Below, in pieces: positions 7,457 through 37,750 of a stretch of 64,000 bases of DNA. The notes under the pieces are model-generated. The model was not told the origin of the DNA, did no database searches, and worked only from the letters and a program-made list of their open reading frames with translations. Numbering within the stretch: position 1 is the stretch's first letter; each line of letters begins with the position of its first letter. Location: contig CAZWUO010000001.1 in assembly GCA_964636675.1 (NCBI GenBank), forward strand, positions 639 to 64,638, given 5' to 3'. The position numbers were made by a program, and so were the translations under genes. The stretch comes from an uncultured Ectothiorhodospiraceae bacterium (GTDB taxonomy: Bacteria > Pseudomonadota > Gammaproteobacteria > S012-40).

Positions 7457-8953
7457 AATCTCTTTTTTCTGTTCATGGGTTAATTCAACGGCGTTATCCT
7501 CGGTAACGGTCTCTAGGCGTACCGTAAACCCCCATAGTCGCGTGAGATGTTTTATTACCTGATCGACAGTTGCAGCAAGTGGTTTACGGTTGTATTGTTG
7601 GTGGCGTAAGGTCAATGCGCGATCGCCACGCATGTCTACATTATACACCTGAATATTAGGTTCTTGGCTTCCTAGATTATATTGATCCGCAAGTAATGTG
7701 CGAATTTGTTGATAGCCTTCATCATTATGAATTGCAGATATTTCGATATTGCGATTTTTGTCATTGTCTAGAACAGCGAACAGTTTTAAGTCGCGTATCA
7801 CTTTAGGTGACAAATATTGTGAAATAAAGCTTTCATCTTTAAAATTTCTCATGGCAAAGTCCAAAGTATCGATCCAGTCTGTGTTTACTAAATCAGGAAA
7901 CCATTTTGTATCTTCCTCGGTAGGGTGTTCGCAGATTCGCCTGATATCACTCATTATCGAAAATCCAAGCGAGTAGGGGTTTATTCCACTATAGTGGGGT
8001 GAGTCGAAATCGGGTTGGTAAGTTACATTACTATGTGACTTGAGGAATTCAATCATAAAACCATCAGTGACGAGATTTTCATCATAGAGTTGATTTAAAA
8101 TCGTATAGTGCCAAAATGTTGCCCAACCTTCATTCATCACTTTAGTTTGTTTTTGTGGATAAAAGTATTGGGATATTTTTCTGACTATGCGTACGATTTC
8201 TCTTTGCCAAGGTTCTAGTAGAGGGGCATTTTTTTCGATAAAGTAGAGTATGTTTTCCTGAGGTTCTTCTGGGAAACGATCAACTATTTTTTCTTTTTTC
8301 TCATTTTCTCGTCTAGGCAACGTGCTCCATAGCTCATTAACCTGAGACTGCATATAAACTTCTCGTTCTTTGAGCCTTGCTTGTTCTTCTTTCATGGACA
8401 CAGGGTGGGGCCGTTTATATCGATCAACTCCGTAGTTCATTAGCGCATGACAGGAATCCAATATTTCTTCGACTGCAACTTCGCCATATTTTTCTTCGCA
8501 GTCAGTCACAAAGTCCTTGGCAAATACGAGATAATCAATAATCGCATCTGCGGAAGTCCATTGTTTAAATAAATAGTTGTTTTTAAAAAATGAATTATGT
8601 CCATAAGCTGCATGTGCAAGCACAAGTGCTTGCGTCATCATCGAGTTTTCTTCCATTAAATAGGATATACATGGATTCGAGTTTATAACAATTTCGTAGG
8701 CTAAGCCCATTTCTCCGCGACGATACTTTTTCTCCGTGTCCATAAATTGCTTACCGAAAGACCAGTGGCTATAACCCACCGGCATTCCAACTGAGGAATA
8801 CGCATCCATCATCTGTTCTGCGGTTATAACTTCTATTTGGTTTGGATAGGTATCGAGCTTGAATTTCCGAGCAATCCTCGATATTTCTTGGTCATATCGC
8901 TCAATCAACTCGAAGGTCCACTCAGATGTTTCAGATATTGGCTTGTGTGTCAT
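7448..8953 (-). CDS. spoVR: SpoVR/YcgB-family protein
   Basis: 501 aa. Conserved gene order prkA-yeaH-spoVR on the same strand. Typical SpoVR-family length and motifs. Confidence 0.85.
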   Translation of the reverse strand: MTHKPISETSEWTFELIERYDQEISRIARKFKLDTYPNQIEVITAEQMMDAYSSVGMPVGYSHWSFGKQFMDTEKKYRRGEMGLAYEIVINSNPCISYLMEENSMMTQALVLAHAAYGHNSFFKNNYLFKQWTSADAIIDYLVFAKDFVTDCEEKYGEVAVEEILDSCHALMNYGVDRYKRPHPVSMKEEQARLKEREVYMQSQVNELWSTLPRRENEKKEKIVDRFPEEPQENILYFIEKNAPLLEPWQREIVRIVRKISQYFYPQKQTKVMNEGWATFWHYTILNQLYDENLVTDGFMIEFLKSHSNVTYQPDFDSPHYSGINPYSLGFSIMSDIRRICEHPTEEDTKWFPDLVNTDWIDTLDFAMRNFKDESFISQYLSPKVIRDLKLFAVLDNDKNRNIEISAIHNDEGYQQIRTLLADQYNLGSQEPNIQVYNVDMRGDRALTLRHQQYNRKPLAATVDQVIKHLTRLWGFTVRLETVTEDNAVELTHEQKKEIAA

Positions 8954-8961
8954 ATAACGTT

Positions 8962-10272
8962 CTACGTTTCATTGTTTTTGCTAAAGAGTTCCCGAAAAAC
9001 AGGATAAATGTCTGCGACATCGTGTAACTGCTGCATCGCAAAATTTGGATAAGTCGATACTATTTTTTCATACTCATACCACAGGCTTTGGTGGTTTTGC
9101 GGGGTTATTTCTACGTATGCAAAATATTGTACTAATGGCATAATGTCCTCTTCCAAGAGCTTTTTGCACAACGGGGAGTCATCATGCCAATTATCACCAT
9201 CTGATGCTTGGGCAGCATAAATATTCCATTCCTCTTCCGAGTATCGTTCTTGTGCGATTTTTTTCATTAAGTGTAATGCGCTCGATACAACTGTTCCACC
9301 TGTTTCGCGAGAATAAAAAAAGTCTTCTTCGGATACTTCTTTGGCGATAGTATGGTGTGATATGAAGACGAGTTCAATTTTTTCATAATTACGATTTAGA
9401 AATAGATAGAGAAGAATAAAGAATTTTTTAGCCATATCCTTCTTTTTTTGATCCATAGACCCCGATATATCCATGAGACAAAACATGACTGCCTGGGTTG
9501 TTGGTTTTTGGATGTCGACCCTATTGTTATACCGTAAATCAAAAGTGTCGATAAAGGGAATCGCATCTCGTTTCCTCTTTAGACCTTCAATTTTTTTTCT
9601 TAATTGAATGACCGGTAAATCGTCTTCGGAAGACGATTCTAATAGCAATTCTAGCTCTTTTTCTGTTTCGATTATTTTTTTTCTATAGGGATTGCGCAGT
9701 GCAATTCTGCGAGCTTGGGCACTACGCATTGAACGCAGAATATTAATGTTTGTAGGTACACCTGATGTAGTGAATCCCGCTCTGGATTTGCTTTTTTCAT
9801 ATATCGTGGAAAGTTTTGTTTTAACCAAGTTTGGAAGTTCAAGATCCTCAAAGAAAAACTCCATGAACTCTTCTTTACTGAGTTCAAAGACAAAGTCATC
9901 AGCACCCTCACCTTGATTCGACGGCTTATTTCCTTGTCCATTTCCTTTGCCACCTCTTGGTCTCGGTATTTTATCGCCGGGTACAAAATCATGATTTCCA
10001 GGATGGATAATATCTCGTTGGCCGCCTTGGCCATGATATATAGTCGGTTCAGAAATGTCTTTTGCAGGAATTGAGATTTTTTCACCACTGTCTACGTCAG
10101 TGATGCTTCGATTTGCAATGGCGTCAGTGACCGCCTTCTTAATTTGGTTTTTATAGCGCCGAATAAAACGTTGACGATTTACTGCACTTTTGTTTTTCCC
10201 ATTAAGACGACGATCAACAAGTCTGTACACAGTGTCAACCTTTATGAAGACTTGCGTACGCGTAAATACCAA
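8962..10272 (-). CDS. yeaH: YeaH/DUF444 family protein (vWA-like)
   Basis: 436 aa. Gly-rich basic segment RPRGGKGNGQGNKP typical of YeaH. Sits between prkA and spoVR. Its start overlaps the prkA 3' end. Confidence 0.85.
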   Translation of the reverse strand: MVFTRTQVFIKVDTVYRLVDRRLNGKNKSAVNRQRFIRRYKNQIKKAVTDAIANRSITDVDSGEKISIPAKDISEPTIYHGQGGQRDIIHPGNHDFVPGDKIPRPRGGKGNGQGNKPSNQGEGADDFVFELSKEEFMEFFFEDLELPNLVKTKLSTIYEKSKSRAGFTTSGVPTNINILRSMRSAQARRIALRNPYRKKIIETEKELELLLESSSEDDLPVIQLRKKIEGLKRKRDAIPFIDTFDLRYNNRVDIQKPTTQAVMFCLMDISGSMDQKKKDMAKKFFILLYLFLNRNYEKIELVFISHHTIAKEVSEEDFFYSRETGGTVVSSALHLMKKIAQERYSEEEWNIYAAQASDGDNWHDDSPLCKKLLEEDIMPLVQYFAYVEITPQNHQSLWYEYEKIVSTYPNFAMQQLHDVADIYPVFRELFSKNNET

Positions 10273-25901: not shown

Positions 25902-27842
25902 GTGACAACAGTAGAAACCAATACAGAGACTAGCGTTGAGAGCAACGCAGAAACACACAAAGAAACAATGAGCTTCCAAACAGAAGTTAAGCAATTACTT
26001 CAGTTAATGATTAATTCGTTGTACTCAAATAAAGAGATATTTTTAAGAGAACTGATTTCAAACGCATCCGATGCTTGTGACAAGCTGCGTTTTAATGGGC
26101 TTACCGATGACGCTTTATATGAGGGTGACAATGATTTACAAATACATGTCAGCTTTAACAAAGATGAAAAGACCTTAACCATTTCAGACAATGGTATTGG
26201 GATGACGCGCGAAGAAGTCATTAGTAATATCGGTACTATCGCAAAATCTGGAACAAAACAATTTTTTGATGCTTTAACGGGAGACCAAGCAAAAGATGCT
26301 CAGCTTATTGGTCAATTTGGAGTGGGTTTTTATTCCTCGTTTATCGTCGCTGAAAAAGTAACAGTGATAACCCGGCGCGCAGGTTTAGGCATTGAACATG
26401 GAGTATGTTGGGAGTCTAGCGGTGAAGGCGAGTTTTCGTTGGAAACAGTTGAGAAGAAATCCCGTGGTACTGACGTTATTTTAACTCTGAAAGCAGACGA
26501 AGATGAGTTTCTTGATAATTTTCGCTTGAAATCAATTATTCGCAAATACTCGGATCATATCGCTTTACCGATTTTGATGGAAAGTGATGATGAGGAAAAG
26601 AAAGGCGAAGATGAGCGTGTAAATCAAGCTTCCGCGCTGTGGACTAGGCCCAAAAATGAAATTACTGACGAAGAATATACCGAATTTTATAAGCATGTAT
26701 CACATGATTTTGAAGAGCCATTAGCCAATATTCATACCTCTGTTGAAGGCAAACACTCGTATAAATCACTTTTTTTCATACCTAAACGTGCACCTTTTGA
26801 TTTATGGGATAGAGAGCGTAAGCAAGGAATCAAACTTTATGTTAAACGGGTATTCATCATGGATGATGCTCAGCATATTTTGCCAGAATACTTGCGCTTT
26901 GTTAAAGGCATTGTCGACTCCGATGACTTACCATTAAATATTTCTCGAGAAATTTTACAAAAAAATCGTCATATTGATGTAATTCGTGGAGCATCCATTA
27001 AGAAAATTTTGGGTTTAATGGAAGGCATTGCTAAAAATGACAAAGAAAAATATGAGATCTTGTGGGAACAGTTTGGCAATGTGTTAAAAGAAGGGCCTGC
27101 AGAAGATTTTGCGAATAAAGAAAGAATTGCGAAATTACTTCGTTTTGCTTCCACGCATAATAATGCGGAAAAACAAAACGTATCCTTAGAAGAATATGTC
27201 GCAAGAATGAATGATCAGCAAGAAGCTATTTATTATATTTCTGCTGATAATTATACTTCGGCGAAGAACAGTCCGCACCTTGAGGTTTTTAAGAAAAATA
27301 ACATAGAAGTTCTGCTTCTCGTTGATCGTGTTGACGAGTGGCTAATGAATCATCTGACCGAGTTTGATGGTAAAAAAATCCAATCAGTAGCAAAGGGTGA
27401 TTTAAATCTTGGCAAAATTGAAGATGATGAAGCAATAAAAGAACAAGAAAAGGCGGCTGAGGAAATACAAGGACTGACTGAGCGAATGAAATCTGCACTC
27501 GGAGAAAAAGTAAAAGAAGTACGTATTACTCATCGCCTTACAGATTCCCCGTCTTGTTTAGTCGTAGAAGATGAAGATATGGCAGTAAATCTTCAACGCA
27601 TGTTAAAAGCAGCTGGTCACGAAGTGCCAAGTAGTCAGCCAATCATGGAAATTAATCCTCAGCATCCATTAGTTAAGCGAATCGATAAAGAAGTGGATGA
27701 GGATTTATTTAATGATTGGACATCCATTTTGTTTGATCAGGCAAATCTTGCAGAGGGTGGGCAGCTTGACGATCCAGCATCTTATGTTGCGAAGTTAAAC
27801 GAGCTGTTGCTTCAGCTATCAACAGATCATGCGATAGAATAA
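25902..27842 (+). CDS. htpG: Molecular chaperone HtpG (Hsp90)
   Basis: GTG start after aggag [36 protein letters not shown] is almost identical to the E. coli HtpG N-terminus, and the GHKL ATPase motifs are present. An alternative start is the internal ATG at 25968. Confidence 0.95.
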
Positions 27843-27924
27843 TTCGATGCGTAATATAGTGCAGGCACTGTGTATGCGGGTTGAAATAATGCGGAGTTTA
27901 TAATAAAAAAAGGTAATAAAAAAA

Positions 27925-27950
27925 GGGTGGCTAATAAGCCACCCTTTTTT
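27925..27950. terminator. Bidirectional rho-independent terminator (htpG 3' end and small minus-strand peptide gene)
   Basis: gggtggct-aataa-agccaccc flanked by an A-run upstream and a T-run downstream. Confidence 0.7.
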
Positions 27951-27971: not shown

Positions 27972-28043
27972 TTAAACAGAAGCCAAAGGTAGCAGTACGA
28001 AAAGTAATAGAGTACCGCCAAAAAAGATCAATGGAACTTGCAT
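27972..28043 (-). CDS. Candidate 23-aa hydrophobic peptide MQVPLIFFGGTLLLFVLLPLASV
   Basis: ATG 8 nt after the AGAGGAG SD. Ends at the bidirectional terminator. Below the ORF-track length cut-off. Confidence 0.35.
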   Translation of the reverse strand: MQVPLIFFGGTLLLFVLLPLASV

Positions 28044-28275
28044 TATGTGAACTCCTCTAAAAAGTAACATCCCAAATGCTCCCCTCCCAAAGGGAGCGCC
28101 CTGTAACTGTGAGCAATAACTCGAACAAATAATCAACATCTATAATAAAGTTAATTACTTGAAGATGTAACATAAACAAGTTTAATAATCTCTGCAAGCG
28201 TTATTTATAGAATCGCTTCTAAAGTGGTAATTATCATCAATATGAATTTGTCTCAGATCAGCTGAATAAAGACAT

Positions 28276-28304
28276 AAAAAAAGCCGGTATAAATACCGGC
28301 TTTT
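28276..28304. terminator. Bidirectional hairpin terminator
   Basis: aaaaaagccggtat-aaa-taccggctttt, a perfect 9-bp stem with flanking A-run and T-run. Confidence 0.5.
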
Positions 28305-28368
28305 AAATCACGTGTATAATATCTCACGTAACGCGATGCAATACGTGAGTGAATATGTCGAGTGGATT

Positions 28369-28473
28369 TTAGCCCATCGCCATACCTAAGAACATAAGTC
28401 CAAAAGTTATTACTATAAGGAAAACCACGATTATCGTATCGTCTTGGCTTACGTCAGTTCTTTGTTTTGCCAT
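28369..28473 (-). CDS. Candidate 34-aa single-TM peptide MAKQRTDVSQDDTIIVVFLIVITFGLMFLGMAMG
   Basis: ATG 9 nt after the AGAGG SD. Paralogous to the peptide at 28740..28844. A hairpin (ctcacgta...tacgtgag) and a terminator follow on the minus strand. Confidence 0.4.
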   Translation of the reverse strand: MAKQRTDVSQDDTIIVVFLIVITFGLMFLGMAMG

Positions 28474-28694
28474 TGGGTATACCTCTTTTATTCAAAATTG
28501 TTAGATATTTATAAACTAAAACATTAATGTAGCAAGACAAACATTAGCAGCAGCAGGATTCGAACGCAAGCAGGCACCCATAGAATATTTATGGGTAAGG
28601 GATAAGGGCAGTTTATTAACTGCTTTCAATGGGGAAACTGGTTAAACTATGTTCTTTTCTATCTCTCCAATATATTAGCAAGAATTGAATAATA

Positions 28695-28719
28695 AGAGGG
28701 TGCGGCAAATACACCCTCT
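28695..28719 (-). terminator. Hairpin terminator downstream of the small peptide gene 28740..28844
   Basis: agagggtg-cggcaaata-caccctct followed on the minus strand by a T/A-rich run. Confidence 0.45.
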
Positions 28720-28739
28720 TAGTAAGGTATGCCCTAATC

Positions 28740-28844
28740 CTAGGCCATATTAACGCCAATAATACCTAATACAAGCGTCATAACAGCTAGATAAACTACA
28801 AACAATGTATCGTGGGTATGAATTAGACCGTCATTCTGGCTCAT
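28740..28844 (-). CDS. Candidate 34-aa single-TM peptide MSQNDGLIHTHDTLFVVYLAVMTLVLGIIGVNMA
   Basis: ATG 7 nt after the AGAGGGG SD and its own hairpin terminator. Aligns with the 28369..28473 peptide: DT[LI][FI]VV[YF]L[AI]V[MI]T[LF].L..[IL]G..M[AG]. Confidence 0.45.
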   Translation of the reverse strand: MSQNDGLIHTHDTLFVVYLAVMTLVLGIIGVNMA

Positions 28845-29116
28845 GAGTGTTCCCCTCTATTTTATTAGTTAGCACGTGATTGCCATCAAAGGCGGATAAA
28901 CCATAGCAGTTTACTAATGTATAAATCAAGTATTTTTTATAAAATATAATGTGTGATAAATGGTAACCCTATGATTTATGGATTATTGCAGGGGCATAGC
29001 AAATAGGTGCTTAGGTTTAACAAATGAGGAAATCATATAAACCAAGTATTTTGCTTATGTAATGACACTTTTGCCAGATAACATCTTCATCACCGCGGAG
29101 AGTGATTGGTTTTGTT

Positions 29117-31639
29117 TTAACCATTTCTTCTATGTTTCTTTTTTTTCGCTTGTCCATGATTATTATATTTATGGGGCTTTTTATATTTTCTTTTATAAGA
29201 TTTCTTTTTTTTCCCATGATGCTTTCGAATCTTTACATGATGTTGTTCCATTTTGTGGTGCTTGTGGGCATATTTATGCGAGCGCTTTTTAGAATATTTT
29301 CGCAAGTGTTTTACTTCATAATAATATGTTTTTGATTTAATATTTCCAGATTCATCGCTTGCTGTCACTACAATGGTATATATTAAGTTTTCATTTGATC
29401 GAGGAATTCTGGTTTTTTTCAACCAGATATCCCATCCATCTTCGGTTTTTCTTATATCCCAAAATGGCTTATTGTACCGATGGCGTCTAGGATGTTTCTT
29501 AATATCCAGGTTAGTGGAAATGTTGATGTCTAGGTTTGGTGATTCATCAACGATGTCCTTTAAGCGATTAATGCTAAGCATGTGCTCGAGCTTACGATTT
29601 GGTGGCCAAAGTCTATTTTTAGTTTCAATGATCGTAAAAGTAGGAGCGGTAGTATCAATAATGATTATCTCTTGTACAGCAACACTTGTGTTTCCGTTGC
29701 TATCGGTTGCATGCCAAGTAACGAGTGTTTGACCAAGCGGCAACGCAGTTGGAGCATTATTAGTAATGGTTACTGGAAAGATATCTTCTGCTTGCGCCGA
29801 GCCAATATTAATTTTGGTTGCAAGACTAGTCGCCTCAGAAATAATATTTTCGGGTGTACTAAGAATAGGAGGTGTCGTATCAGCAACTTGAATGGTTGAT
29901 GTTAAGCTTGAGGCATTGCCACTTGCATCAATTGCACTCATATTTATATCGGTAAACCCGACCGGAAACCACGAGTCATTTATACTGATAGTGGTGTTAG
30001 GGATACTGCAATTGTCTGTTGCGTTGATCGTCACCAAGTAGTGGGCACCTTGTAACGAAGTGGCCTCTAACATGATGTACGATGGTGTGTGAATTTGGGG
30101 TGGTGTATAGTCGTTAATAGAAATTATTACATTATCTGAATCTAATGCATCCGAATTATCACGTACTTGTAAGTTAATGTTATGAATTCCGGTTGCCAAC
30201 GGAAGTACTGGATTCATTAAGTTATTGCTGCCAAAAGTGCCTGTCCAGGTATAGGCCAACGACTGCTCAGAGTCAGGATCGTTTGATTGGCTACCATCGA
30301 GTTGTATGTTTGTAGTAAGGCCGTTACACAATAAAACTTGATCAATTCCCGCATTTGCGACGGGCTGAATATTGGGTATGGTATCTCTCACACGAAGATT
30401 AATTTGGGTGTGATTATTCGAACCCAAATTTGACGCTGAAGACGAAAATGTCAACATCTCCCCGTTATCGTTTATTGCGCTAACGAAGTCAATATTAGCA
30501 TTCAGTTGCTGCCCTTGGTGAGTCAAACTGACTCGTTCGGTGGTACCTAAGATAGTATCGTAGACAAATAAATCGCTTGAATCGTTTGAGTCGTTGCTGA
30601 CCAAGTTGCTTGCTTTTGATACATATGACACAAAACGACCGTTATTACTCATTTTGGGTATTAGACTAACGTTGTTTGCTTGAATCCCCTCCGAGGATTT
30701 ACTGATGAGAATAATTGAATCGGTAGTTTTGTTGTACAAAAAAACATGTCTAAATGTTGCATTTGTACCAGCCACTAAATTCTTAGCGTCCGATATAAAT
30801 GCAATGTATTTTCCGTTGCCACTGATATAAGGGTTTCTATTGTTGGCGACAAGAGGGCTGCCATCAAAGGTTTTGCTGATTAACTCAGAAGTACCTGTTT
30901 CTCTGTCCCAAAGAAAGACATCATACTTATTGTTGTCATCAATCGGGTCAATGTTATTCGCAACAGAAATGTAACTGATGTATCTGCCATCATCACTGAT
31001 GCTTGGAGAATTGCTGTCCCCATTAGCGCTGGATCCATCAGGAGAGGATGAGATTAATTGTACCGAATTGTTAACTACATCAAATATGAATATATCGCGA
31101 AATTGATTGTTATCGTTAGGCGCTAGGTTTGTAGCTCTGGAGTGAAAAACGATATATTTTCCATTACCACTAATTTGAGATAACGAACTTATCCCATTCG
31201 GAATGCTTCCATCATGGGTTTTACTCACTAGTGTTGTAATGTTATTTGTTATATTTCTTAAAAATATATTACCCTTGCTTCCCGAGTTAGCGGTGAGATT
31301 GTTTGCAAAAGACTCGAACACTGCCAATGTCCCATTGCTATCTATATCTGCCCGAAGGCTATTTGCATTTCCTGGATCCCCTGAATTTGAAACACTTAAT
31401 CGAGTGAATTTATTTGTTGTTCGGTCAAGCAGATAGATGTTTCTATTTGTTACCCCATCATTTATAAGATTTCTGGCAGTAGATTCGAATACGATTCTAT
31501 TAGCCTTTGCGCTTATTGAGGGAGAATAGCTTGGACCATTTCCCAATTCGCTTCCATTCTTCGAAATTATAAATGTTTCAGCAGCATTTACCGCAAAACA
31601 AAACACGAATAGAAAACTATATTGGAACAGAGCTTTCAT
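29117..31639 (-). CDS. Secreted 840-aa protein: N-terminal PD40/TolB-like beta-propeller repeats, HYR/Ig-like modules and an extreme Lys/His-rich C-terminal tail
   Basis: GGAGG SD and signal peptide MKALFQYSFLFVFCFAVNAAE. Repeated NGKYI(V/A)F.S.A.NL units. HYR-like blocks (NCSIPNTTISINDSWFPVGFTDINMSAIDASGN, VTWHATDSNGNTS). Last 65 aa about 45% Lys and 20% His. Start overlaps the upstream gene's stop (ATGA). Confidence 0.7.
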   Translation of the reverse strand: MKALFQYSFLFVFCFAVNAAETFIISKNGSELGNGPSYSPSISAKANRIVFESTARNLINDGVTNRNIYLLDRTTNKFTRLSVSNSGDPGNANSLRADIDSNGTLAVFESFANNLTANSGSKGNIFLRNITNNITTLVSKTHDGSIPNGISSLSQISGNGKYIVFHSRATNLAPNDNNQFRDIFIFDVVNNSVQLISSSPDGSSANGDSNSPSISDDGRYISYISVANNIDPIDDNNKYDVFLWDRETGTSELISKTFDGSPLVANNRNPYISGNGKYIAFISDAKNLVAGTNATFRHVFLYNKTTDSIILISKSSEGIQANNVSLIPKMSNNGRFVSYVSKASNLVSNDSNDSSDLFVYDTILGTTERVSLTHQGQQLNANIDFVSAINDNGEMLTFSSSASNLGSNNHTQINLRVRDTIPNIQPVANAGIDQVLLCNGLTTNIQLDGSQSNDPDSEQSLAYTWTGTFGSNNLMNPVLPLATGIHNINLQVRDNSDALDSDNVIISINDYTPPQIHTPSYIMLEATSLQGAHYLVTINATDNCSIPNTTISINDSWFPVGFTDINMSAIDASGNASSLTSTIQVADTTPPILSTPENIISEATSLATKINIGSAQAEDIFPVTITNNAPTALPLGQTLVTWHATDSNGNTSVAVQEIIIIDTTAPTFTIIETKNRLWPPNRKLEHMLSINRLKDIVDESPNLDINISTNLDIKKHPRRHRYNKPFWDIRKTEDGWDIWLKKTRIPRSNENLIYTIVVTASDESGNIKSKTYYYEVKHLRKYSKKRSHKYAHKHHKMEQHHVKIRKHHGKKKKSYKRKYKKPHKYNNHGQAKKKKHRRNG

Positions 31640-36043: not shown

Positions 36044-37750
36044 ATGAAAGTATTAGTGGTCGATGATGATGCAACGAATAGGCTCGTCTTAAAGGGCTTA
36101 CTCGAAAAAGAAGATCATGATGTTATGCTGGCAGTAAACGGTGTTGAGGCTATTCAACAGTATGAAAATGGCAGTCCAGACCTGATTTTAATGGATGTTA
36201 TGATGCCAGAAATGGATGGCTACGAGGCGACCAGAGAAATCAAAAAGAGGTGTGGTAGCCGATTTGTTCCGATAATATTTTTAACCGCAGTTAGTGGTAA
36301 TGAAGCGTTAGTAACCTGTCTCGAATATGGTGGTGACGATTATATCGGGAAACCTTTCAACCGAACCGTATTAAGCGCAAAAATTGAAGCAATGAACCGC
36401 ATTGTTTCTCTTTATTATCAAATCCAAAACCAAAAAGAAGAGCTTGAAACCCATAAGCGTCATGTTCAGCGCGAAACTGAAGTAGCAGAGAAAATATTTA
36501 ATGGTATTCTTGAGCGCAGTGATTTAAATGTAGACTTTATCAATACCTTAAGACGTTCAGCCGAAGCATTTAATGGTGATATCGTGCTTGCCACGCGTAA
36601 TCCAAACGGGGGGATGAATATATTAGTGGGTGATTTTACAGGTCATGGTTTAGCCGCTGCTATTGGAGCAATGCCTGTCGCTGATGTGTTTTATGGAATG
36701 TCCAAAAAAGGCTTTGAGCTTGAAGACATTGTATCGGAAATAAATAAAAAATTACGTGTTGTCTTACCCATGGGGAGATTTTTGGCGGCGTGTATTATTC
36801 ATGTGGATACACGTTGCGAATACCTAAAAATATGGAACGGAGGAATGCCAGACGTTCTTATTTACCGACCGAGTGCGAAACAAGTAGTAGAATACTTGCC
36901 TTCTGAGCACGTTCCGTTGGGAATCTCTTCTCCTGTTCAGTTTGAAACGCAAGCCACCCGGGTGAAAATCAGCCCTGGCGACTATTTATATATTTATTCT
37001 GACGGTGTCGTTGAAACCACAAACGAACACGATGAGTTATTTGGAATGGATAGATTGGTTGAAGTTATTACTACGTTTGATGGCAACGAGGTTATCAGTG
37101 AATTAGAGGCATCTTTAAGTCGGTTCTCTAATACGCTTCCGCAAGCTGATGATATTACTTTAATGGAGTTTCATTGTAATCCAACTCATTTATTGCAACT
37201 CGATAATGAGATATCAGTTGGTAAAACATATGCAACCAGTTGGAGTATGTCGTTTATTTTTGAAACAGATACCTTACAGCGATTAGATCCAGTCACTTTT
37301 TTAATGAAAACCTTGAGCGAAATACAAGGCCTGCGAAGTCACAGTCAAAGTTTGTTTATGATCATTTCAGAGTTGTTTAGCAATGCGCTTGAGCATGGTG
37401 TGCTTGGCTTAGATTCGAAGTTAAAGACGACGCCTGAGGGATTTGCGCAATATTATTTTTTACGAGAAACTTTATTAAAAAAGATGAAATATGCTTATAT
37501 AAAGTTCAGTTTTTCACAGAAAATCATCGGTAGAGGAGGTGAAATAACCATCGGGGTTGAGGACTCAGGAGATGGGTTTGACTATGCTTCGTTAGGTGGG
37601 GAGAAACAATCAATGCCGCCTGAAAGTGTTAAATCGGGACGCGGACAGGTGCTTATTGCTGATTTGTGTGAGACTATTACCTATAAAGGAAAAGGAAATG
37701 TGGTTGAAGCCGTTTATTCTTGGAATGATACCCCCCTTATCGCGCATTAA
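36044..37750 (+). CDS. Three-domain partner-switching regulator: REC receiver + PP2C (SpoIIE/RsbU-like) phosphatase + RsbW-like GHKL serine kinase (HsbR-like)
   Basis: REC (MKVLVVDDD...DLILMDVMMPEMDG). PP2C block (GDFTGHGLAAAIGAMPV...YIYSDGVVE). GHKL N-box ELFSNALEHG, G1 DSGDGFD, G2 GRGQVLIA. Confidence 0.8.
   Translation: MKVLVVDDDATNRLVLKGLLEKEDHDVMLAVNGVEAIQQYENGSPDLILMDVMMPEMDGYEATREIKKRCGSRFVPIIFLTAVSGNEALVTCLEYGGDDYIGKPFNRTVLSAKIEAMNRIVSLYYQIQNQKEELETHKRHVQRETEVAEKIFNGILERSDLNVDFINTLRRSAEAFNGDIVLATRNPNGGMNILVGDFTGHGLAAAIGAMPVADVFYGMSKKGFELEDIVSEINKKLRVVLPMGRFLAACIIHVDTRCEYLKIWNGGMPDVLIYRPSAKQVVEYLPSEHVPLGISSPVQFETQATRVKISPGDYLYIYSDGVVETTNEHDELFGMDRLVEVITTFDGNEVISELEASLSRFSNTLPQADDITLMEFHCNPTHLLQLDNEISVGKTYATSWSMSFIFETDTLQRLDPVTFLMKTLSEIQGLRSHSQSLFMIISELFSNALEHGVLGLDSKLKTTPEGFAQYYFLRETLLKKMKYAYIKFSFSQKIIGRGGEITIGVEDSGDGFDYASLGGEKQSMPPESVKSGRGQVLIADLCETITYKGKGNVVEAVYSWNDTPLIAH

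Follow-up and report, generated by a model that had tools for sequence, protein, structure and literature searches.

The DNA analyzed here, referred to as the window, is a stretch of 64,000 nucleotides (nt) from an uncultured gammaproteobacterium, and the subject of this report is a cluster of three very short open reading frames (ORFs) in one of its intergenic gaps. The gap is 1.27 kb long and is flanked on one side by htpG, on the plus strand (25902-27842), and on the other by the minus-strand gene of an 840-amino-acid (aa) PD40/HYR protein (29117-31639). All three ORFs are on the minus strand. ORF A (28740-28844; 34 aa, MSQNDGLIHTHDTLFVVYLAVMTLVLGIIGVNMA) encodes a membrane peptide designated A-type, and is always the first gene of the cluster; ORF B (28369-28473; 34 aa, MAKQRTDVSQDDTIIVVFLIVITFGLMFLGMAMG) encodes a paralogue of A, designated B-type; and ORF C (27972-28043; 23 aa, MQVPLIFFGGTLLLFVLLPLASV) encodes a peptide that is unrelated to A and B and has zero charged residues. 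An earlier interpretation, made from the letters without database searches and called here the sequence-only reading, had reported three minus-strand mini-ORFs of 23, 34 and 34 aa behind unusually strong Shine-Dalgarno (SD) sequences, and the present analysis agrees on both counts. The SD sequences, again on the minus strand, are AGAGGGG for A (28852-28858, 7 nt from the ATG), AGAGG for B (28482-28486, 8 nt from the ATG, and followed by the palindrome GGTATACC) and AGAGGAG for C (28052-28058, 8 nt from the ATG).

In the window, 692 ATG ORFs of 18 to 60 aa were counted, 16 of which have a strong SD. The combination of a strong SD with a hydrophobic stretch was encountered at the A, B and C loci only, and chance is therefore excluded. 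Each of the three peptides is shorter than 50 aa and has, by hydropathy, a single transmembrane helix.

A tblastn search within the window pairs A and B as reciprocal best hits (45% identity across 22 aa, E 0.012). The sequence-only reading had called the two genes paralogous, and the family data presented below remove any doubt on their homology. In peptides of this family, a polar, acidic segment makes up the first 13 residues or so, and a single transmembrane helix then reaches to the C terminus. Residue D12 is invariant. The helix displays a conserved L26/G30/A34 face with a small-xxx-small pattern, and we infer that this face serves helix packing. The polar head of the A type is of the kind MSQND..I..HD, while the B type has the consensus MAKQRTDVmaDDa..V.YL.....L.flGMsMA, with KQR..D..DD in its N-terminal tail. 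C-type peptides are 23 to 26 aa long, consist almost wholly of one helix and have no charged residue; their consensus is M(GNAG)VP..F....LLLFVLLPL(A/T)(S/T)V, with the ending LLPL(A/T)(S/T)V and an invariant Pro five residues from the end.

A profile built on A and B was searched against 1.84 billion representative proteins with a cut-off of E<1e-3. It matched 19 clusters, nearly all of them full-length proteins of 33 to 34 aa. Contigs encoding several of the matched proteins were taken as relatives, together with the results of one metagenome scan that used a narrower A/B alignment and gave three new loci, and all these contigs were scanned in six frames with hidden Markov models (HMMs). Wherever a scanned contig was long enough, an ordered A-B-C cluster was seen, which opens with an A-type gene, continues with one or two genes of the B type and ends with one of the C type. 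It is present in the window and in the lineages designated L028, L030, L032, L034, L036, L037 and L038. The contig of L035 begins at B and carries B and C. The additional B-type copy is present in two lineages. A C-type ORF follows the B-type gene in the window, L028, L030, L032 and L034 to L038 (HMM E 1e-8 to 1e-15); gene finders missed it throughout, yet it was recovered in all these lineages.

The HtpG proteins of the cluster-bearing lineages are only 65 to 69% identical to that of the window, with the exception of L028 (91.5%), and the cluster must therefore be old. The locus is single and vertically inherited, and the peptides were not found on the plasmids, phages or viral contigs searched. 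A scan of genome contigs using htpG did not detect the trio next to htpG in htpG relatives of 66% identity or less, nor was it next to htpG in the htpG relatives L041 to L043. The host organisms are uncultured Gammaproteobacteria, and the traceable sources of the cluster-bearing lineages are estuarine sediment, one of the samples coming from San Francisco Bay. When the A/B alignment was clustered by the unweighted pair group method with arithmetic mean, the sequences split perfectly by gene position, all first-position genes being of the A type and all later ones of the B type. Sequences of one type share 51% identity, those of different types 33%. This sorting implies that the duplication predates the divergence of the lineages, and that both copies have been kept in a fixed order. 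We conclude that A and B, as judged from their sequences, are ancient paralogues.

The close relative L028 allowed the selection acting on the ORFs to be estimated. The window and L028 are 86% identical at the nucleotide level over the region, with no indels within the ORFs and many in the spacers. The ratio of nonsynonymous to synonymous substitution rates (dN/dS) is 0.07 for A (dN 0.026, dS 0.387; 8 of 9 substitutions at the third codon position), 0.09 for B (dN 0.065, dS 0.736; 9 of 15 at the third position) and 0.20 for C (dN 0.063, dS 0.321; 5 of 8 at the third position, none at the second). By these substitution patterns, A, B and C are protein-coding genes under purifying selection. According to the sequence-only reading, conservation confined to the nucleotide level would speak against the genes; what is conserved in the relatives is the reading frames themselves. 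A strong SD and the start codon are kept for every gene copy in every lineage, and for C the AGAGG core is invariant in 7 lineages. We infer from the invariant SDs, the purifying selection and the conservation at the amino-acid level that the three ORFs would be translated.

The window peptides gave only sub-threshold chance matches in Pfam and NCBIfam (DUF6480 and ABZJ_00068_fam). Searching all family members against Pfam, and the C type against NCBIfam as well, added only PetM, DUF5964, PMP1_2 and oadG_fam; none of these matches is to a toxin family. In the same two databases there was no profile match to the known type I toxin families (Hok/Gef, Ldr, Ibs, TisB, ShoB, Fst and others), nor any between the A, B and C peptides and the MgtS, AcrZ, KdpF, CydX or MgrB families. 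No PDB chain matched A, B or C at E values up to 10, complexes solved by cryo-electron microscopy included. The A/B type and the C type are undescribed families, of a kind, stand-alone small membrane proteins, that is already known.

The sequence-only reading had also stated that gene finders would call none of the three ORFs. This is correct for C, which was never called, and wrong for A and B, which are called in public assemblies; both are annotated as genes on the public contig of a strain that shares 96.7% identity with the window in this region. On a near-identical public contig, L026, a gene finder called a 38-aa ORF at 28058-28174 (minus strand). It overlaps the promoter and 5' untranslated region (UTR) of C, and L028 does not keep its frame; most likely the call is false and the real neighbouring ORF C was missed. 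A 55-aa in-frame extension of C, starting at 28139, was likewise rejected, its upstream part being frame-shifted or different in L028, L030 and L032.

To identify promoters, the 200 nt that precede the genes of each type were aligned. Conserved blocks stand out in these alignments, while the remaining spacer sequence is not alignable between lineages. The putative sigma-70 promoter of A (28900-28940, minus strand) consists of an A-rich element, a -35 box TTGATT (28924-28929), an 18-nt spacer and a -10 box TATGGT (28900-28905), which in the window is preceded by a TG resembling an extended -10. Across lineages the block reads A-rich element, CTTGAT or CTTGCA, N17-18, (TG)nTATGGT, and it is kept in 6 to 8 lineages despite divergent flanks. 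For B, the predicted promoter (28541-28570, minus strand) has a -35 box CTTGCG (28565-28570), an 18-nt spacer and a -10 box TAATGT (28541-28546), and the block reads CTTGnn, N17-18, gCTAAGGT across lineages. That of C (28169-28198, minus strand) has a -35 box TTGCAG (28192-28197), a 17-nt spacer and a -10 box TATGTT (28169-28174); a 33-nt block is identical in L028, and CTTG..-N17-TATGTT/TATGGT (reading CTTGCA-N17-TATGTT) is kept in 6 of 7 lineages. Promoters of the sigma-32 or sigma-E kind were considered and rejected by inspection, the conserved blocks matching sigma-70-like -35 and -10 boxes.

An AT-rich palindrome of 17 bp, CCATAAATATTCTATGG (28578-28594, minus strand), lies 7 nt upstream of the -35 box of B. 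Written CCATAAATATTnTATGG in the lineage alignment, it occupies the same position in the window, L028, L030, L032, L034, L036, L037 and L038, and is probably a regulator binding site, to judge from this conservation, that would control B. A LexA box has the pattern CTGT-N8-ACAG, with which the palindrome (CCATA-N7-TATGG) is incompatible. No second exact copy was found in the window, and the idea of a regulon was rejected.

From the position of its putative promoter, the 5'UTR of C would be about 118 nt long in the window, and about 110 to 135 nt across lineages. It contains a predicted hairpin, GCGCTCCCTTTGGGAGGGGAGC (28078-28099, minus strand), which is conserved in the window and L028 and not in distant lineages. 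A fourU-type thermometer at the SD of C was discarded on inspection, the local hairpin being kept in the window and L028 only. Purine-rich, SD-like runs (GAGAGGAGGAG, AAGAGGGGGGG and GGGAGGGGAG) were observed in several 5'UTRs of C, about 85 to 100 nt upstream of the real SD (L037, about 8330-8360; L038, about 9105-9125; window, 28078-28099). A decoy ribosome site, a standby site or part of a hairpin are possibilities for these runs.

At the 3' ends, the sequence-only reading had placed a stem-loop terminator after each ORF. Canonical terminators were found for B and C, and for A a hairpin without a proper U tract (28690-28724, minus strand; 11-bp stem, interrupted U tail), which the terminator scan did not call. 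The intrinsic terminator of B (28279-28304, minus strand) is formed by AAAAGCCGGTAT..ATACCGGCTTTT followed by a T run (fold z -6.4), and the B-type genes of all lineages are followed by a canonical one. A bidirectional terminator at 27919-27950, acting on both strands, is common to ORF C (minus) and htpG (plus). Between the stop codon of B and its terminator there is a second hairpin (28316-28356, minus strand); L028, L034 and L035 have one at this position too, the structure being kept and the sequence not. Overall, the region holds three genes for very small membrane peptides that have been inherited vertically as a cluster and would be expressed independently of each other.

Comparison of the UTRs revealed a further regularity. 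A motif in the 5'UTR of A, AATCACGTG (28873-28881, minus strand), at about +12 to +20 of the predicted A mRNA, is complementary to a motif in the 3'UTR of B, CACGTGATT (28306-28314, minus strand), located directly 5' of the B terminator (A-tract and stem). The consensus of the A motif is GCA(A/T/-)TCACGT(G/A), and its reverse complement sits in the 3'UTR of B. The corresponding pairs are CAATCACGTGT and ACACGTGATTG in L028, GCATTCACGTAAA and TTTACGTGAATGC in L036, GCATCACGTAA and TTACGTGATGC in L037, and AGCATCACGT and ACGTGATGCT in L038, the A motif being given first. In these five lineages (the window included), the duplexes have energies of -16 to -19.5 kcal/mol, and the variable positions of the motif change in both pairing partners within a lineage. 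A pairing segment beside an intrinsic terminator, with a co-varying target in a 5'UTR, is what is found in 3'UTR-derived regulatory RNAs.

The reverse combination, the 5'UTR of B with the 3'UTR of A, shows complementary stretches as well: they measure 19 nt in L032, 15 in L034 and 11 in L036, and in L037 there are 10 nt covering the SD region. In the window, a bulged duplex of about 14 bp would form over the SD of B (28690-28724 with 28480-28495): the 3' arm and tail of the A hairpin, CCTCTTATTATTCAA, are complementary to the SD region of B, TTGAATAAAAGAGG.

The mean longest complementary run is 8.9 nt for the A 5'UTR with the B 3'UTR and 10.4 nt for the B 5'UTR with the A 3'UTR, compared to 6.0 to 6.8 nt for seven control pairings. 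When lineages were permuted, these values were significant (P = 0.003 and 0.002, respectively), and this was still the case after removal of L028 (P = 0.012 and 0.0003). Permutation of RNAduplex energies gave P = 0.01 and 0.002, and 0.17 to 0.73 for the controls. Complementarity between the 5' and 3'UTRs of the same gene was at background level (P = 0.3 to 0.5). Folding of a hypothetical read-through RNA covering A and B gave a closing helix between the A 5' and B 3' segments in 6 of 7 lineages; the other cross-pairs did not form. Some of the motifs are partly palindromic, and in L032 each arm also folds on itself. The complementarity, with its matched lineage-specific changes, suggests RNA cross-talk between the paralogues, and it is the most interesting lead of the locus.

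We then considered the neighbourhood of the trio. The ancestral order appears to be TPR protein, FecR-domain protein, small ORF, PD40/HYR, ycgN, a divergent regulator of the OmpR/PhoB type, A-B-(ycgL)-C, sometimes a protein of about 580 aa, and convergent htpG. In the window and L028, ycgN and the regulator have been lost; L030 has a gene other than htpG downstream of the trio; and in L032 and L034, ycgL is inserted in the cluster. The only recurring neighbours are htpG, ycgL/ycgN, the response regulator and PD40/HYR proteins. The trio stays together through these changes, which argues for a functional link between the three genes.

In most lineages the regulator, an orphan with ycgN beside it, is divergent from the A-type gene (L030, 769-1467; L032, 1268-1975; L037, 6368-7117; L038, 6973-7668), and its score is below every NCBIfam equivalog cut-off. 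As it was lost in the window and L028, it is not obligatory for the trio. A search for an OmpR-type regulator elsewhere in the window matched only an unrelated receiver domain at 36044. This belongs to a single protein (36044-37750) that fuses a response-regulator receiver, a SpoIIE/PP2C phosphatase and an HATPase_c_2 domain of the anti-sigma-kinase kind, and that looks like a partner-switching module in a single chain. Two observations concern the flanking genes. The PD40/HYR (beta-propeller/HYR) protein, whose orthologues adjoin FecR-domain and TPR proteins across the clade, has a C-terminal tail (29117-29290) of about 55 residues in which Lys and His are extremely abundant (…HKYAHKHHKMEQHHVKIRKHHGKKKKSYKRKYKKPHKYNNHGQAKKKKHRRNG). 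HtpG has, relative to that of L028, an N-terminal insertion of 14 residues (25902-25970), which can equivalently be placed elsewhere in a repeated TVET...HKET stretch.

What could such peptides do? We favour the explanation that the conserved A, B and C genes encode small accessory or regulatory membrane proteins and, taken as a whole with its well-established parts, consider it rather probable. Deep vertical conservation and the polar tail suit specific protein contacts better than generic membrane damage. Each gene would be transcribed as a monocistronic unit with its sigma-70-type promoter, strong SD, and hairpin or terminator, B being additionally controlled via the conserved palindrome that precedes its -35 box. 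The peptides would insert with the N terminus inside and the C terminus outside, and A, B and C may act together as accessory or regulatory subunits of some membrane protein or complex, by analogy with MgrB, MgtS, AcrZ, KdpF and CydX. The sequence-only reading had named MgtS, AcrZ and KdpF as one of its two possibilities; the class fits better than toxins do, as an analogy, and the peptides belong to none of these three families. The A and B mRNAs probably communicate, a short segment of the 3'UTR of each pairing with the 5'UTR of the other and covering the SD in some lineages, which would couple or alternate the production of the two paralogues.

Several points weigh against this explanation, or against parts of it. 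No conserved membrane-protein neighbour of the trio (transporter, kinase or oxidase) was found. Small size, hydrophobicity, two to three tandem paralogues and the long 5'UTR of C are also typical of type I toxins. All the host organisms are uncultured, and promoters and transcription start sites were placed by conservation only. As for the UTRs, the sample consists of 8 lineages, two of which are close relatives; the A 5'UTR and B 3'UTR pair is absent in L030, L032 and L034; and the complementarity could reflect inverted repeats at the DNA level, for example sites bound by proteins. The motif keeps a constant position relative to the terminator, which favours an RNA role over the last possibility.

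A stronger form of the UTR proposal can be formulated, as a reciprocal post-transcriptional switch in which each 3'UTR, or a small RNA (sRNA) cut from it, pairs with the 5'UTR of the sister gene and thereby chooses the peptide to be made. We put this forward tentatively, as a possibility less probable than its opposite. If the switch existed and the A and B peptides were toxic, the system would be type I-like, with the same-strand 3'UTR of the sister gene, and not an antisense RNA, as antitoxin.

This leads to the toxin question itself. The sequence-only reading had likened the layout to multicopy type I toxin loci and had expected antisense or divergent sRNA antitoxins in the intervening hairpin-rich DNA. 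A, B and/or C would then be membrane-damaging peptides held low by RNA, the antitoxin being either an undetected antisense or divergent sRNA or, in an unconventional variant, the 3'UTR of the paralogue. The peptides do have the size and nature of type I toxins (shorter than 60 aa, hydrophobic, one transmembrane helix); with 23 to 34 aa they are almost entirely one hydrophobic helix, and C is free of charges like IbsC (PMC12648545). The tandem copies and the 5'UTR of C are in line with this, and the complementarity between 5' and 3'UTRs recalls the tac/fbi fold-back of hok (PMC9841398).

The defining RNA features of type I systems were not found, however, and the toxin reading is therefore not supported. 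The antisense strand showed no promoter-like site in the window, nor did the comparison of 8 lineages give a conserved one, whereas sense promoters were found in all of them; the search was based on patterns, which a non-canonical promoter could escape. The only plus-strand terminator given by the terminator scan is that of htpG itself. Rfam, run over the whole window, gave no antitoxin or sRNA family at the gathering score, and only terminator-driven noise at permissive E-values. The probability that the region from SD to AUG is unpaired was about that of shuffled 5'UTR controls, so that sequestration of the SD was not seen, automatic promoter assignment having failed for some genes. The UTRs of one and the same mRNA do not fold back on each other, as noted above. 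Also against a toxin are the absence of a toxin family match, the strong purifying selection, which extends to the polar N-terminal motif, the gene order that is fixed at about 67% HtpG identity, and the absence from the plasmids, phages and viral contigs searched. The hairpin-rich intergenic DNA is better explained as the promoters, 5'UTRs and 3'UTRs of three mRNAs, including the same-strand complementary UTR segments. We regard a toxin function as unlikely.

Less likely still are dedicated small subunits of one housekeeping membrane complex, such as an oxidase, a transporter or a P-type ATPase, encoded elsewhere in the genome. They would be comparable to CydX, CcoQ and KdpF, but unlinked. 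Deep conservation, the co-retention of three genes and the small-residue helix face L26-G30-A34 would fit this picture, and strong SDs suit stoichiometric or high expression. Neither the small chains of the PDB (cryo-electron microscopy included) nor the small-subunit families of Pfam and NCBIfam match, however, and genes of a complex were adjacent in none of 9 loci. In addition, the promoters are separate and differently built, one having an operator-like palindrome, which points to condition-dependent rather than constitutive expression.

It is very improbable that the transcripts are in the first place regulatory RNAs acting via their UTR motifs, with small ORFs that are secondary or dual-function: the lineage-specific complementarity and a motif that adjoins a terminator on its 5' side, in the manner of 3'UTR-derived sRNAs, would agree with it, but distant lineages are conserved at the amino-acid level while the bodies of their UTRs are not alignable, substitutions fall on third positions with dN/dS well below 1, and a strong SD and start codon are invariant in every lineage. 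Finally, pseudogene fragments of a larger protein, leader peptides and bacteriocin or RiPP (ribosomally synthesized and post-translationally modified peptide) precursors were rejected: each ORF has its own promoter, SD and terminator, a downstream gene in the same direction is absent, and so are maturation or export genes nearby.

With the A/B type and the C type, two undescribed and deeply conserved families join the few bacterial micro-proteins that comparative data support strongly. Their lineage is known through sediment metagenomes only, and annotation consistently overlooks one of the three genes. The idea of small membrane peptides acting in concert can be put to the test here, the A-B-C order being fixed and the pair of paralogues retained. 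Should the reciprocal complementarity between 5' and 3'UTRs prove functional, it would be an unusual direct cross-regulation from mRNA to mRNA between paralogues; if neither idea holds, the cluster is one further well-supported set of unannotated small membrane proteins.

Among known systems, the closest in kind are the small membrane-protein regulators MgrB, MgtS, AcrZ, KdpF and CydX (reviewed in PMC12648545). They share with A, B and C a length below 50 aa, a single transmembrane helix, an organization as stand-alone mini-genes, each equipped with a promoter, an SD and a terminator, and a chromosomal, vertically inherited location often overlooked by annotation. They differ in that no sequence relationship exists (Pfam, NCBIfam and PDB being negative), in that here three peptides, two of them paralogous, form one ordered cluster, and in that the A/B helix reaches the very C terminus and is preceded by a conserved acidic N-terminal tail.

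The enterobacterial loci ldr/rdl, ibs/sib, zor/orz, shoB/ohsC and tisB/istR resemble the cluster in having tiny hydrophobic peptides, tandem paralogues, an intergenic location and nearby complementary UTR partners. In contrast to these loci, an antisense or divergent sRNA gene was not detected here and there is no family match. The complementary partner is on the same strand, in the UTR of the paralogue, the SDs are strong and unsequestered, and conservation is much deeper than is usual for such toxins.

At the RNA level, two comparisons can be made. In hok mRNA, a segment of the 5'UTR pairs with the 3' end of the mRNA in the tac/fbi fold-back (PMC9841398). The cluster is similar to hok, and to H. 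pylori aapA1 with its 5'-3' pairing, in that a 5'UTR segment is complementary to a 3' end in the mRNA of a small membrane peptide. It differs from hok in that the UTRs of two genes pair, A 5' with B 3' and B 5' with A 3', and not those of one mRNA, and in that a Sok-like RNA was not found. The second comparison is with CpxQ, SdhX and DapZ, which are 3'UTR-derived sRNAs of the Hfq type. As in these, a short pairing segment lies immediately 5' of an intrinsic terminator and the target site is in the 5'UTR of another mRNA; what sets the cluster apart is that the target would be the paralogous neighbour, and the relation reciprocal.

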